NCBI GenBank assembly: GCA_020697715.1
Contig: JAEHCO010000002.1
Location: 192,001 to 256,000 of the forward strand
Length of the DNA: 64,000 nt
Reading direction: 5' to 3'
Source: Methanobacteriota archaeon
GTDB lineage: Archaea > Thermoplasmatota > Thermoplasmata > SG8-5 > JAGLSY01
The notes beneath the pieces are model-generated. The model was not told the origin of the DNA. It worked only from the letters and a program-made list of their open reading frames with translations, and searched no databases. This document shows positions 13,464-48,156 of this stretch, one piece after another (the stretch's first letter is position 1; each line of letters starts with the position of its first letter). Position numbers and translations under genes: made by a program.

Positions 13464-13549
13464 ATAAATTCCCCAATTTATCCTATGGGGAAGTATATCC
13501 TATTAATGGCATTAATAAATTTGTATAGGGTGGTTAATTCTGACTTATT

Positions 13550-14278
13550 TTATTTGAATCTTATGGTTTCAACATTGAATTCCTTATCTTTGCCAAGAAT
13601 TGTCGGAATGAGCTTGCCCGCATCCTTGATCGCCATTTTCTTGTACTTGCCAGCCAGTGTCTTCATATGAGCTTCCATTCCATCACCGATGACAGCGGCC
13701 GTGAATTCGGCCGCTGTCCCACTCGGATCAATGACAAATAGCCTCGGATGATCGAAGTTAGTGGCAACTAGAAGCCCCACACCCAGTGGTCTTACATCCT
13801 TTTTTATCGTGTGCGACCAATATATTTCCTTTATTGTGTAAAGCATGTCATCCACATTCTTGAAATCCTTGTTCCGAAGCTGATTCAATATCATGGATCC
13901 GTCCATTGCCAGTCCTGCAGTTCCTATCAGGATCTTATTGGATATTCTGTGGATCTTTATCGGGGACATCATTAGCGAATTGCCAGCCTTGGCAGATATG
14001 TCCTCAGATGCCATTAAGATACCATCTGTGCATATTATTCCCATGACACTGGCTCCACGCTTCACACTTTCGCGGGCATATTCGATCTGATGGATGCGAC
14101 CTTCGGGTGAGAAGAAATTGTCGGTGTCATAGCCCTTGGATATCGGGCCTATGGTGTTCAGGAATTGAACTATCGCCGCTCTGGCCAACTCTGCCTTATT
14201 TCCGAACATCCCACTCTTTATCACCATGTCCAGATAGTTATCTACCTCATCTGGAATTACGACCCTTAATTCTGACAT
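13550..14278 (-). CDS. ribbon-helix-helix domain fused to a divergent proteasome alpha-type subunit
   Basis: MSELRVVIPDEV...SGMFGNKAELARAAI (CopG/RHH-like) is followed by GYD...FSPEGRIHQIEYA, RPLGV and DPSG. Start placed at 14278 because GGAGG lies just upstream. Confidence 0.8.
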   Translation of the reverse strand: MSELRVVIPDEVDNYLDMVIKSGMFGNKAELARAAIVQFLNTIGPISKGYDTDNFFSPEGRIHQIEYARESVKRGASVMGIICTDGILMASEDISAKAGNSLMMSPIKIHRISNKILIGTAGLAMDGSMILNQLRNKDFKNVDDMLYTIKEIYWSHTIKKDVRPLGVGLLVATNFDHPRLFVIDPSGTAAEFTAAVIGDGMEAHMKTLAGKYKKMAIKDAGKLIPTILGKDKEFNVETIRFK

Positions 14279-21587: not shown

Positions 21588-21818
21588 GCAGAGCATATTC
21601 TCAGCAATGTATATTCGGATCCATGTGAGCATGCCCCGTCTGGATAATTTATATAATATTCATTAGGGCGGGGTACTCTCAGTTGTATGCTAACGAGTGA
21701 CAGTTGCGATGTGCCAGCAGAGAAATAAACTCCTCGCTTTCAAATGCGAGGAGTCAAATCAATCCCCGCCAAGAGTTCAACGAAGGGCGGGGTCTTTATC
21801 CATACCAGTTTAACAAAC
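21588..21818. repeat. multi-hairpin intergenic element A, copy 1
   Basis: Shares ordered blocks GCAGAGCAT, AGCATGCCCCGTC, CGGGGTACTCTCAGT, GAGTGACAGTT, AGTCAAATCAA, CCCCGCC, TTATCC and AACAAAC with 22884-23090. Confidence 0.8.
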
Positions 21819-21948: not shown

Positions 21949-22071
21949 GGCTGACAGCGTTCTGCGGTTCCCGTGGACTCTCGTACCACAGTACAGCGCA
22001 GAACGCAGGTGGGCTTAACTTCTGGGTTCGGAATGAGACCAGGTGTGGCCCCACCGCTTTGACCGTCAATC
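21949..22071 (-). rRNA. rrf: 5S ribosomal RNA (stand-alone)
   Basis: Minus strand reads GATTGACGGTCAAAGCGG...CTCATTCCGAACCCAGAAGTTAAGCC...GTACTGTGG...GGGAA...CTGTCAGCC. It contains the CCGAAC loop and its termini pair. Confidence 0.95.
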
Positions 22072-22883: not shown

Positions 22884-23090
22884 ATTTGTTAGCAGAGCAT
22901 TTTGTATTCAAGCATGCCCCGTCCCGAGAGACGCAGGGTCGGGGTACTCTCAGTGATGTGCCAGTGAGTGACAGTTACGATGTACTAGCAAAAAAATTAA
23001 CTGCTCGCTTTAAAATAGCGAGCAGTCAAATCAAACCCCGCCCCGATTAAAGCAGGGGCGGAGTCCTTATCCTCACCCAGCTCAACAAAC
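22884..23090. repeat. multi-hairpin intergenic element A, copy 2
   Basis: Same block order as copy 1. Ends ATTTGTTAGC / GCTCAACAAAC form an imperfect inverted repeat. Confidence 0.8.
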
Positions 23091-23105: not shown

Positions 23106-23145
23106 TTATATGAGCTTTCCCCAGGAATGCTCAACATTACATCCC
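23106..23145 (-). repeat. exact 40-bp duplicate of the 3' end (including stop) of the gene at 23254-24384
   Basis: TTATATGAGCTTTCCCCAGGAATGCTCAACATTACATCCC occurs at 23106-23145 and 23254-23293. Confidence 0.97.
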
Positions 23146-23253
23146 TGATACACCCCCACTTTTTTCTTTACCTTCGCTGTGCTGGCTTACCCTCCAAAGA
23201 AAAAAGACGGACAAAATAAGAAACTCGGGTAAGCCTGCTCGCTCAGGATTTGC
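23146..23253 (-). mobile_element. structured ~110-nt element B, copy 1 (putative non-autonomous element or ncRNA)
   Basis: Homologous to 47276-47385, with an identical 34-nt core TCCAAAGAAAAAAGACGGACAAAATAAGAAACTC. Bracketed by the 40-bp direct repeat. The mobile-element label is an inference. Confidence 0.65.
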
Positions 23254-24384
23254 TTATATGAGCTTTCCCCAGGAATGCTCAACATTACATCCCATATGCC
23301 CAAGATCCTCTCTCTGCACAGTGAGGGTTCCATCCAGCTTCCTGAAAGTGAAGTCATCCACTTCTGCCGGATATTCATTGTAATAGAGAATGGACCTCAT
23401 GCCCCATCTTCTGGGCTGTTGGAACCTCCAATAGGCTCTGGCATAGGCCTGTATCTTGATGAACATCTCCTTCTCATCATCCTTGCCAGATACGTAGAAG
23501 ACTGGCAAGCCTCTCTCGACCTCATGCTTGATCTTGATGTCCTTCTTATCGAAAAGGAAGAGCTCCTTTGTGGGGTGGTGATAGAATCTCATGTTCTTTG
23601 ATAATCGAATATCACCCCAGTCCAGCATGGATGTTGGCTTTTCAGTTGTGCGGAATATCTGTGGCCCGAAGAAGGGATTGAAGTATTCGAAATAGCTGCC
23701 ATCCTCACCGTGGCCGATACCCCAGTACCAGGTTGGTGCTGGCGCATTCACGGTCACACGTTGCTCATAGGCGGTTCCTTCAACAGGCTGGCCGTCAATG
23801 GTGCCTTTCATCTTCATGCCGTATATCTTGAGGATATTGTATCCCATCTTTTTGGTGTACTGGCGTTCATTGAAGCGATGCTCCTGCATGTAATCATTCC
23901 AGGGCGTCATCTCGAAATGAAAATCATTCTTGTCGTCCTTGACATTGACCGTGTATTTGTCTGGCCCTCCGAAGAAGCGGTAGTCCGCGCCTTCTACAAG
24001 TGGCTTGAGTTCGCCTTCTTCTCCATCATGGCGAACTTCGAAGTCCATTTCCTTAAGGACCAGAGGGTCGTGCATCTCCTTTCCATCATACCACCAGGCT
24101 GCTGTCATGCCATTGAATCGCATGACACCATCTTCTTTTGTCGTGGGCAGCTGTTTGAGCTTCCATTTCATGTCCATGACCTTGATGTCATCAGTGTATT
24201 TCGTTGACCAGAGTATCATGAACTGCTTTGTCCTGCCAGGATTGTCAGGGTCTTTTATGAAGAATATCCACCACCACCACCACCAGGTGAGATTGGGCAA
24301 CATATTGTCTGTTTTCAATACCCAGATGTTCTCATACGGCTTGTGAGCTTCAGATTCGATTTCATTGACCATTAACATGGACAT
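23254..24384 (-). CDS. hypothetical aromatic-rich beta protein, possibly tocopherol-cyclase/CrtC-like fold
   Basis: 376-aa ORF with WWWWWWIFF near the N-terminus, G.IDG..V.G.AY.Q.V, WYWG and terminal EHSWG. The fold call is an inference. Confidence 0.55.
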   Translation of the reverse strand: MSMLMVNEIESEAHKPYENIWVLKTDNMLPNLTWWWWWWIFFIKDPDNPGRTKQFMILWSTKYTDDIKVMDMKWKLKQLPTTKEDGVMRFNGMTAAWWYDGKEMHDPLVLKEMDFEVRHDGEEGELKPLVEGADYRFFGGPDKYTVNVKDDKNDFHFEMTPWNDYMQEHRFNERQYTKKMGYNILKIYGMKMKGTIDGQPVEGTAYEQRVTVNAPAPTWYWGIGHGEDGSYFEYFNPFFGPQIFRTTEKPTSMLDWGDIRLSKNMRFYHHPTKELFLFDKKDIKIKHEVERGLPVFYVSGKDDEKEMFIKIQAYARAYWRFQQPRRWGMRSILYYNEYPAEVDDFTFRKLDGTLTVQREDLGHMGCNVEHSWGKLI

Positions 24385-47230: not shown

Positions 47231-47275
47231 TTATTTCTTGTACTTAGCACAGATCTTAATGAAATTCTTAAAAAT
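47231..47275 (-). repeat. exact 45-bp duplicate of the 3' end (including stop) of the GMP synthase subunit A gene
   Basis: TTATTTCTTGTACTTAGCACAGATCTTAATGAAATTCTTAAAAAT occurs at 47231-47275 and 47386-47430. Confidence 0.97.
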
Positions 47276-47385
47276 CTCTTCCCCACCACTTTTTTCTTTA
47301 AACCTCGCTGTGCTGTATCGGGCTCCAAAGAAAAAAGACGGACAAAATAAGAAACTCGCCCGACCCTGCTCGCTCGGTATATGAT
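47276..47385 (-). mobile_element. structured ~110-nt element B, copy 2
   Basis: CCACTTTTTTCTTTA...TCGCTGTGCTG...34-nt identical core...CCTGCTCGCTC, as in 23146-23253. Bracketed by the 45-bp direct repeat. Confidence 0.65.
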
Positions 47386-47958
47386 TTATTTCTTGTACTT
47401 AGCACAGATCTTAATGAAATTCTTAAAAATATCCTCGCCGTACTCAGTATGCTCGACCTCTGGGTGGAATTGCACACCATAGAATGGTTTTTCCTTGTGC
47501 GCGAAAGCCTGGTGCGCACAATCTTTTGAATGCGCGAAGTTCTTGAAAGTGTCCGGTAGAATTTTGACCTCATCATTATGCGATTCCCATACTTGGAAAG
47601 GGTTTGTCACACCTTCGAAGAGTTCATTCTCCTCTTCGATGATGACCGATGTCTTTCCGAACTCCGGAATGCTGGCAGGCCCGGCGGTTCCACCATAATA
47701 AAGGGCCATGAACTGTGCGCCGACACATATTCCCATGATCGGAAACTTCGCTTTGTCAAGATAGTCGCCGCTGTTTCCCAGCATAAGTGCTTCCTCACCT
47801 ATTCTTGGTGCTCCACCAGATAGGATAAGACCATCGACATCCAGGTCCTCGAAGGGTGTGGTATTTGGAATTATCTCTGTTTCCACATCCAGATATTTCA
47901 AAACCCTCCACTCTCTATGGGTCCACTGTCCGCCATTGTCTACAACGAAGATCTTCAT
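47386..47958 (-). CDS. guaAA: GMP synthase subunit A (glutamine amidotransferase)
   Basis: MKIFVVDNGGQWTHRE, LSGG, GICVGAQ, SHNDEV and QFHPEV.HT. Start set at 47958. Confidence 0.92.
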   Translation of the reverse strand: MKIFVVDNGGQWTHREWRVLKYLDVETEIIPNTTPFEDLDVDGLILSGGAPRIGEEALMLGNSGDYLDKAKFPIMGICVGAQFMALYYGGTAGPASIPEFGKTSVIIEEENELFEGVTNPFQVWESHNDEVKILPDTFKNFAHSKDCAHQAFAHKEKPFYGVQFHPEVEHTEYGEDIFKNFIKICAKYKK

Positions 47959-48156
47959 TGACGGGTACATGATGAGATGGGATAAAATGGTTGTGGAAAT
48001 CACCTTATGTTCATTGATATTTTCCAAGTCTTGCTAGAGATATCTAAAATCTGGCAATTAACAATGTTTAGATGTGTTTGCCAGCACACAATCTGGATAG
48101 CTAACCAACAGTAACTATTAATAAGAAATAATTGTATGCAGTTAATGAGGATTAAA

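Follow-up and report, generated by a model that had tools for sequence, protein, structure and literature searches.

The question raised by this locus is how the end of a gene came to be present twice, once in the gene itself and once on the far side of a short noncoding insert. The window (the whole 64,000-nt stretch of contig JAEHCO010000002.1, here C22, that was analyzed) holds such an insert, named element B, behind the stop codon of an open reading frame (ORF) at locus 1 (23106-24384), and a second one at locus 2 (47231-48027), ~24 kb away. Based on the comparison of filled and empty sites between genomes, element B is probably a noncoding, structured, non-autonomous mobile family that inserts beside gene termini with long target duplications of variable length. 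It is apparently an undescribed, order-wide archaeal family of small (∼95–115 nt) noncoding structured mobile elements without a transposase gene of its own.

Direct reading of the + strand at locus 1 showed that positions 23106-23145 and 23254-23293 were identical at 40 of 40 positions (TTATATGAGC...ACATCCC), and that the bases preceding the two copies (T vs. C) and following them (T vs. A) differed. The TTA at 23254-23256 is the TAA stop codon of a minus-strand ORF of 376 amino acids (aa). In gene sense, the ORF and its TAA are followed by 108 nt (23253 down to 23146) and then by a second copy of the last 40 nt. The 108-nt element (23146-23253) had a single exact occurrence in the window, and a tRNA scan of the window found none. 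The nearest Atlas clusters of the host protein were Thermoplasmatota proteins, one of them automatically named AttH domain-containing. The features of locus 1, with the predicted hairpin parts, are as follows.

23106..23145, minus strand: pseudo-copy X' of the last 40 nt of the ORF including TAA; the duplication arm on the T-run side, equal to 23254-23293
23146..23159, minus strand: variable G/C-rich element end (TGATACACCCCCAC on the + strand), unconserved among copies except for ...CCAC before the T-run
23160..23169, minus strand: tract T1 (TTTTTTCTTT on the + strand, A-rich AAAGAAAAAA on the minus strand); complements tract A1 exactly
23170..23192, minus strand: hairpin 5' arm in + orientation (ACCTTCGCTGTGCTGG plus the variable 7 nt CTTACCC), from RNAalifold and pair counts
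23193..23226, minus strand: hairpin loop with mirror-repeat purine tracts around GACGGAC (two U-rich tracts on the minus strand)
23196-23205, within the loop: tract A1 (AAAGAAAAAA)
23213-23223, within the loop: tract A2 (AAAATAAGAAA)
23227..23247, minus strand: hairpin 3' arm (GGGTAAG plus CCTGCTCGCTCAGG, the "R motif"), from pair counts
23248..23253, minus strand: A/T-rich spacer between gene stop and hairpin (ATTTGC on the + strand), varying among copies in length and sequence
23254..24384, minus strand: host gene of 376 aa without a Pfam family; the final 40 nt, 23254-23293, make up the other duplication arm

The variable end (23146-23159) bears a weak likeness, judged by eye, to the gene sequence beyond the duplicated segment X, and it may be an eroded distal part of the duplication. 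Locus 2 has the same layout: positions 47231-47275 equal 47386-47430 (45 nt), and the TTA at 47386-47388 is the stop of an ORF of 213 aa that belongs to the Pfam GATase class I family (4.4e-40). The elements of the two loci are 79–82% identical.

47231..47275, minus strand: pseudo-copy of the last 45 nt of the GATase gene including TAA; duplication arm
47276..47385, minus strand: second element copy, matched by covariance model R1 (described below) at C22:239285-239380, E 3.4e-25
47276-47289, 47290-47299 and 47300-47323: variable end, T-run and hairpin arm of this copy
47324-47357, 47358-47377 and 47378-47385: its loop, other arm and spacer
47386..48027, minus strand: host gene, glutamine amidotransferase class I, 213 aa; its last 45 nt are the other duplication arm

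The preliminary description of the window had located and described both loci correctly (40-nt and 45-nt copies, stop codons, differing next bases). An assembly artefact was considered and rejected, because a separate genome of the same genus (G003, ∼94% complete) has the same architecture at both orthologous loci.

To what family these two copies belong was analyzed by blastn and by the covariance model R1, which was built on an alignment (A1) of 17 copies from the genome holding the window (G000; 2.12 Mb, 93.8% complete). In G000, ∼20 copies were found by blastn and 21 matches by R1. When 41 related genomes were searched with R1 at a threshold of E ≤ 0.001, 25 had matches, with at most 36 matches counted per genome. 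Within the order of G000, the element was present in 21 of 22 genomes (G000 counted), and the sole genome without a match is 61% complete; in the rest of the class it was found in 4 of 19 genomes. Rfam gave no gathering-score match for the element (only 5S rRNA passed in the window), and a loose local Rfam scan around locus 1, with E up to 10, gave nothing relevant and neither an element for nuclear expression (ENE) family nor a MALAT1 family. Literature searches, which left supplements out, turned up no description of such an element in archaea. The search for an autonomous version found that the two hairpin halves (≤2 mismatches) never bracket a gene; all that turned up was solo R motifs and a single copy whose loop holds a 66-nt insert. 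A nested loop insert of ∼66 nt (AATCGAATCAAGCC...GTCGCATTTAAAAA) is common to G000 C11:637387-637544 and to locus 2 of G003 (L055, ∼2563-2750), and the latter copy carries an additional insert of ∼45 nt. On contigs C22, C29 and C11 of G000, the copies are co-oriented within the contig (4 of 4, 4 of 4, and 5 of 7). No usable replication polarity to set beside this orientation came out of the GC skew in these contigs.

Whether the repeats arise by insertion was determined by comparing filled with empty sites. Places were listed for 23 of the 35 G003 matches, and 20 of these were compared with G000: two sites were filled in both genomes, nine were empty in G000 with overlapping G003 flanks, two were empty without overlap, and seven could not be assigned to any of these classes. 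At the nine sites, the G003 flanks overlapped on G000 by 26, 40, 49, 62, 63, 64, 90, 90 and ∼203 nt, the last of which depends on a flank with just 74% identity. At one of the sites filled in both genomes, G003 has a further insert flanked by a tRNA end duplicated over 20 nt, which gives altogether 10 G003 insertions at sites with a single copy of the repeat in G000 (20–203 nt). Since the flanks overlap on G000, the target segment is single when the site is empty and double around the element. Insertion thus leaves the element bracketed by two copies of a long target stretch, 20 to ∼200 nt, of variable length. One such empty site lies in the window itself.

13549..13588, no strand assigned: empty target site (locus L081); in G003 an element lies here between two copies of the 40-nt segment

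This segment spans the stop of the minus-strand ORF C22:205550-206293. The clean insert at L081 is the element alone (∼97–99 nt), and its termini (GGAAGCC... and ...CATTCGC) are not inverted repeats. As for the two window loci, the element of locus 1 is present in G000 and G003 and absent from two further genomes (G001 and G002), and locus 2 is empty in G001, with ∼22 nt and no duplication between two convergent genes. The preliminary description had looked to empty orthologous sites as a check, and these nine insertions and the empty loci 1 and 2 of G001 supply it; its idea of a non-autonomous noncoding element with long, variable duplications was borne out by the family of 21 matches in G000 and by the empty sites with a single repeat copy. 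In a screen of 65 element loci with full flanks, a flanking direct repeat scoring at least 15 was present at 31, with lengths of 17–85 nt, compared with 2 of 300 random G000 positions used as a control.

Near-tandem exact duplications of 33–53 nt, 1–14 nt apart and with no element between them, were also observed in G000 (C11:391680-391776, C11:551797-551915 and C31:35072-35151). Either the loss of an element or simple slippage could have produced them.

The position of the duplicated segments was then related to genes. When the 10 target segments were read in the empty genome, one boundary lay, in all 10, at about −13 to +31 nt from a gene terminus: six protein 3' ends, three starts (one exactly at ATG) and one tRNA 3' end. 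Where a repeat is seen, a gene terminus nearly always lies within it, namely a protein 3' end, a tRNA 3' end or, less often, a start. The earlier proposal of gene-end targeting therefore stands as to the link with gene termini, which is real, and fails as to its confinement to stop codons, given that starts and tRNA ends are used too. The arrangement is also polar. The repeat copy on the R-motif side runs on into an open frame of more than 500 nt at 18 of the 29 repeat-bearing loci, whereas that on the T-run side did so at 0 of 29 (longest frame, 421 nt) and adjoins the element at a distance of 0–9 nt in most repeat-bearing loci. The gene is thus intact on the R-motif side, and the copy on the T-run side, which at locus 1 is the 40-nt "exact copy of the ORF end", is useless. 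Genes for tRNA-Ser, tRNA-Leu and tRNA-Pro adjoin element copies. A second association with tRNA genes was noted, in which the T-run of the element directly follows a tRNA 3' end without duplication (G000 C11:637305-637389, tRNA-Leu; C11:675791-675802; and L025:1426-1501, tRNA-Pro); at these sites the element seems to supply the tRNA terminator. More generally, the elements very likely supply terminators to neighboring genes and, very likely too, sometimes promoter-like A/T-rich leaders.

The two arms of a repeat do not evolve as independent sequences. At locus 1, the arms had no differences within G000 and none within G003, whereas between the species 8 of 40 positions differed; a single one of these eight differences alters an amino acid. 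Between the same genomes, divergence is ∼10% for the element and 13% for the following 300 nt of the gene, and the hairpin shows two compensated pair changes (CTTACCC/GGGTAAG vs. ATCACCC/GGGTGAT). Because the arms are exact within and divergent between species, the locus 1 insertion is old and its arms have evolved in concert. In several repeats the center is identical and the edges are degenerate, as in a 72-nt repeat with all five mismatches in its distal 22 nt, and a weak likeness, seen by eye, continues beyond both window repeats. At some filled sites, the last four codons of the functional copy are non-native, and the native codons are kept in the pseudo-copy and in the empty genome; the altered gene ends keep their length and similar residues (TLFE* to TLYQ*, HKVKK* to HKAKV*). 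At four loci, the pseudo-copy is followed by the spacer and the first 7–25 nt of an element. We infer that gene conversion between the arms, with occasional overshoot, keeps the centers identical while the edges decay; one arm would be held by selection on the protein and the noncoding parts would drift apart. With conversion and edge decay, an older and longer duplication would give the appearance of ending at the stop codon. The exact end of the copies at TAA, which the preliminary description had emphasized, is real, and it may at least in part result from such uneven decay.

The layout of a copy is given here for the + strand of the window: a variable G/C-rich end (often ...CCAC) leads to T1 (TTTTTTCTTT, a T-run with a single C in it), after which come the first hairpin arm (CCTCGCTGTGCTGG and 7 variable nt), the loop (∼34 nt), the second hairpin arm (7 nt and CCTGCTCGCTCGG, the R motif) and an A/T-rich spacer of 0–63 nt. 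The loop consists of A1 (AAAGAAAAAA, an A-run interrupted by one G), GACGGAC and a second A-rich run, A2 (AAAATAAGAAA). The hairpin was evaluated by RNAalifold and pair counts on 71 distinct copies, with shuffles and with the partner slid by 1–3 columns as controls: 93.5% of the hairpin cells were paired compared with 73.3% in shuffles, changes on both sides occurred at 12 of 16 pairs, and the slid-partner controls paired at 26–52%. Among the mismatches, A·C cells (equal to G·U on the minus strand) numbered 28 and G·T cells 4. Since the former outnumber the latter, the minus strand is favored, and the long imperfect hairpin most likely forms on this gene-sense strand.

The three tracts carry a further signal. 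T1 is the exact complement of A1, the C of T1 and the G of A1 shift position together, and the G of A2 sits at the mirror-image offset relative to that of A1. The registers were measured by script because the model alignment was out of register at the T-run/A-run helix, for which reason column-wise pair counts were dropped there; 64 of the 71 distinct copies could be parsed, giving 30 distinct tract haplotypes, and 10000 permutations were run. The offsets agreed in all three tracts in 14 of 30 haplotypes and between T1 and A1 in 22 of 30, levels reached by 0 of 10000 permutations in either case; agreement between A1 and A2 (17 of 30) was reached by 32 of 10000. A mirror repeat cannot be maintained by templated copying, and therefore the registers suggest selection on a triple-stranded fold. 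On the minus strand, two U/T-rich runs lie in the loop and an A-rich run downstream, with a polarity and register that suit U·A-U triples and one C+·G-C. The two loop tracts may accordingly clamp the downstream A-rich tract as a U·A-U/C+·G-C triple helix, either in RNA or in single-stranded DNA; a purine-motif triplex on the + strand is also geometrically possible.

Several observations weigh against the interpretation of element B as a structured, duplication-forming mobile family. No flanking repeat scoring at least 15 was found at 34 of the 65 loci, and therefore duplication may not accompany every insertion, or it decays; likewise, 2 of the 11 empty sites showed no overlap of the flanks. 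The duplications were sized by alignment ends, which may fall short where the intergenic DNA has diverged, and the tie to gene termini may therefore be overstated. As for the fold, its energies were unremarkable relative to shuffles (z of −1.2 to +0.18 on both strands of both window copies); the structure therefore rests on covariation, and energy was not taken as evidence. This covariation is among related copies, and the permutation tests on the tract registers ignore kinship among them. T-runs are also expected to stop the archaeal RNA polymerase within the element, which is at odds with a full-length RNA.

How the element is moved was approached through the enzymes encoded. The preliminary description had noted neither a reverse transcriptase nor an integrase in the window, and this fits the whole-genome searches: the reverse transcriptase profile RVT_1 had no match in G000 or G003, and the single G000 matches of Phage_integrase (a tyrosine recombinase gene) and of Y1_Tnp lie outside the window, on contigs C29 and C1 (C1:16359-16709), respectively. 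G000 also had no match to DDE_Tnp_1 (PF01609), no multi-copy ORF family or multi-copy transposase ORF, and no match to the TnpB zinc-ribbon motif (PF07282), a search outside which IS110-type recombinases fall. We tentatively prefer copy-choice (template switching) during replication as the insertion mechanism. The growing strand would leave the gene and stall, would switch to an element elsewhere, copying it from the A/T-rich leader through to the structured end, and would then re-anneal some tens of bases behind the stall. Such a process could account, without an enzyme, for duplications that are long and variable, for the polarity and the partial second passes, and for a junction that is G/C-rich inside the gene and has the A/T-rich leader near the gene end, as well as for tandem arrays of element plus repeat, which are present in several genomes. 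Widely staggered cuts by an enzyme are the main alternative; that a dedicated trans-acting enzyme cuts 20–200 nt apart, whether the Y1 (HUH) transposase, in the manner of the REPINs (hairpin-forming doublets of repetitive extragenic palindromic sequences, REPs) and their REP-associated tyrosine transposases (RAYTs), or an unrecognized one, is possible and somewhat doubtful. The Y1_Tnp gene of G000, a 223-aa ORF with an N-terminal extension of ∼85 aa, is single and without a TnpB motif found in the genome, and Y1_Tnp was present in 17 of 25 element-bearing genomes vs. 5 of 16 without the element. No genome of the order with a completeness of 84% or more lacked it, and most had just one match. 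Its protein, however, scored as an IS200/IS605 transposase in NCBIfam (115 bits; cut-off 55) and below the cut-off for REP-associated ones (22.9 bits; cut-off 80), and transposition of IS200/IS605 is known to leave no target duplication. Two element-bearing genomes that are 91–94% complete (G029 and G032) have no Y1 gene. The preliminary description had also proposed to look for a reverse transcriptase, Y1 transposase or nuclease beside element copies; G000 gave no RVT_1 or PF07282 match, its Y1 gene is single, IS200-type and unlinked, and the eight loci searched (seven around Y1 genes, one around the integrase gene) gave no element match. The element resembles REPINs, as far as the available accounts of these go, in being hairpin-forming, intergenic, multi-copy and persistent at orthologous sites, and in IS1634 and IS1549, according to the available part of the source (PMC2266710), there is a precedent for a transposase making long repeats of variable length, though no DDE_Tnp_1 gene was found in G000.

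The remaining explanations are much less probable than either of these. A SINE-like (short interspersed element-like) retroelement inserted by target-primed reverse transcription (TPRT), as had been suggested earlier, would be in keeping with the A-rich tract near one end, joined precisely to the duplication (0–9 nt in most repeat-bearing loci), with the variable repeat length and with the existence of solo fragments of one end, the R motif. It is nonetheless very improbable, because RVT_1 was matched in just 4 of the 25 element-bearing genomes and is missing from both G000 and G003 (each ∼94% complete), in which the insertions differ; moreover, the retained fragments come from the end opposite the A-rich tract, and TPRT duplications are typically 7–20 bp, far shorter than those seen here. 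The other suggestion made at the outset, a constant scaffold with a variable guide in which the gene-end copy acts as a guide or antisense RNA matched to the target gene, agrees with the identity of the arms within each species despite 8 of 40 differences between them, and with the direct reading that the copy, on the + strand, lies antisense to the gene and has immediately behind it a T-run capable of terminating a short transcript. Arm identity is equally well explained by gene conversion, however, and the empty sites show that the second copy originates as a target duplication at insertion. The repeat is missing, at the score used, from 34 of 65 loci, varies in length from 17 to 85 nt and more, and is sometimes derived from a tRNA end or from a gene start, the latter being sense rather than antisense; at locus 2 of G003, the copy and the gene differ at 4 of 45 positions, as counted by eye. 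With no PF07282 nuclease match in G000 either (IS110-type recombinases being outside that search), a guide function is hardly to be expected. Equally far-fetched are remnants of integrase-mediated integration, that is, attachment-site (att) duplications at gene or tRNA 3' ends that have outlasted a larger, since-lost element. Such remnants would explain the tRNA 3' ends among the targets, and other small G000 inserts are also bracketed by tRNA-end repeats of 29–59 nt; yet the same ∼100-nt element lies at many unrelated targets with its own repeat at each, the insert at L081 is the element alone (∼97–99 nt), and the one tyrosine recombinase gene is on another contig.

The small inserts just mentioned were found at duplicated tRNA 3' ends (38, 59 and 29 nt) at C28:52304-52442, C30:10550-10733 and C11:413235-413399 of G000. 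They measure 63, 66 and 107 nt and bear no relation to element B; a second copy of the 63-nt one, with 92% identity, lies at C22:278846-278908. Unrelated small inserts with tRNA-end repeats are thus a hint of a general host process. Two other repeat families were noted. Element A, a separate family of ∼150–190 nt with ∼15–20 partial or full copies in G000, lies in the window at 22903-23089 and 21666-21800, beside the 5S rRNA gene (21949-22070, minus strand); its copy adjoining locus 1 is absent from the orthologous site of G003, and Element A is therefore also polymorphic between G000 and G003. A third family, with 16–18 copies at ∼1-kb spacing, occupies C1:18219-22686 and contig C4 of G000, 1.2 kb from the sole Y1 (IS200-type) gene.

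When compared with known systems, element B lacks the defining traits of MITEs (miniature transposable elements with inverted repeats), REPIN/RAYT systems, IS1634-type insertion sequences, TPRT retroelements, att remnants and known guide-RNA systems. Like MITEs, it is small, noncoding, multi-copy and non-autonomous; unlike them, it has no terminal inverted repeats, and its duplications are long and variable rather than short and fixed. It differs from integrase att duplication in its many unrelated targets and in that the Phage_integrase gene lies on another contig, and from TnpB omega-RNA-type guide systems in that no PF07282 match was found in G000, IS110-type recombinases lying outside the search. 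With REPINs, in the accounts available, it shares noncoding hairpins in intergenic regions, tens of copies and long persistence beside a single-copy Y1 transposase, as well as a hairpin of inverted units conserved by compensatory change (both sides at 12 of 16 pairs). REPINs are not known to leave a long duplication, however, and RAYT genes are flanked by their REPs, whereas the Y1 gene of G000 is IS200-type and not flanked by the element, and element B contains a triplex-type mirror repeat. IS1634 and IS1549 have terminal inverted repeats; they are described, in the material available on them, as autonomous DDE elements, unlike element B, which has no ORF or inverted termini and no DDE_Tnp_1 gene in G000. 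What they share with it is the long variable direct repeats formed upon insertion, of 8–514 bp (19–26 bp for IS1630), for which the available parts of the sources give no accepted mechanism (PMC2266710, PMC2853133).

Restriction-modification gene units offer another precedent. Within the part of PMC2853133 available (Furuta et al., 2010, citing work on Helicobacter pylori), these units are bracketed by direct repeats, tens to hundreds of bp long, of which the empty genome has one copy; some of the repeats overlap gene 3' ends, and a transposase takes no part. They are multi-kb gene units and single events, unlike the conserved, repeated, archaeal 100-nt noncoding element described here (PMC2853133). 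The repeat-flank screen in the same portion of that paper took in archaea, and no archaeal system passed its selection (PMC2853133). The implication in the preliminary description that nothing known makes such long duplications must consequently be corrected, as the IS1634/IS1549 repeats of 8–514 bp and the restriction-modification units with long target duplications are both on record in the parts of the sources at hand (PMC2266710, PMC2853133). For the fold, the nearest likeness is to MALAT1 and the ENE+A structure, which in the available part of the source likewise have two U-rich tracts on a stem and a downstream A-rich tract, with a U·A-U register and one C+·G-C (PMC13541005). In element B, the two U tracts would lie in the terminal loop, joined by 7 nt, and not around an upper stem, and no Rfam ENE or MALAT1 match was obtained. 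According to the same part of that source, ENEs occur in plant and fungal transposon RNAs (PMC13541005); element B, with its predicted fold, would resemble these in carrying a triple-helix-type structure on a mobile element. The closest precedents, as far as the sources go, are thus long-target-duplication inserts and IS1634/IS1549 for the insertion signature, REPINs for the lifestyle, and ENE+A/MALAT1 for the fold.

To our knowledge, small noncoding mobile elements are poorly known in archaea. The traits of element B are unusual: it is order-wide, occupies tens of sites per genome and inserts beside gene ends without breaking genes, and its duplications are ten times longer than those of ordinary transposons. 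The covarying mirror repeat with its third complementary tract is hard to explain except by a triple helix. The prokaryotic triple helices mentioned in the available part of PMC13541005 are those of riboswitches only. Element B is a case of "insertion with long target duplication" that recurs and is defined in sequence, and for annotation it means that duplicated gene ends resemble pseudogene fragments or assembly errors. It is conceivable, if unlikely, that the hairpin-plus-triplex fold itself stalls replication (or transcription-coupled repair) and thereby provokes a template switch at gene ends with no transposase needed, and that this fold, when formed in RNA, gives the upstream transcript a 3'-end cap in the form of a MALAT1-like triple helix. 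If this were true, an element copying itself by means of its own fold and also serving as an RNA cap would be the first prokaryotic element of its kind.

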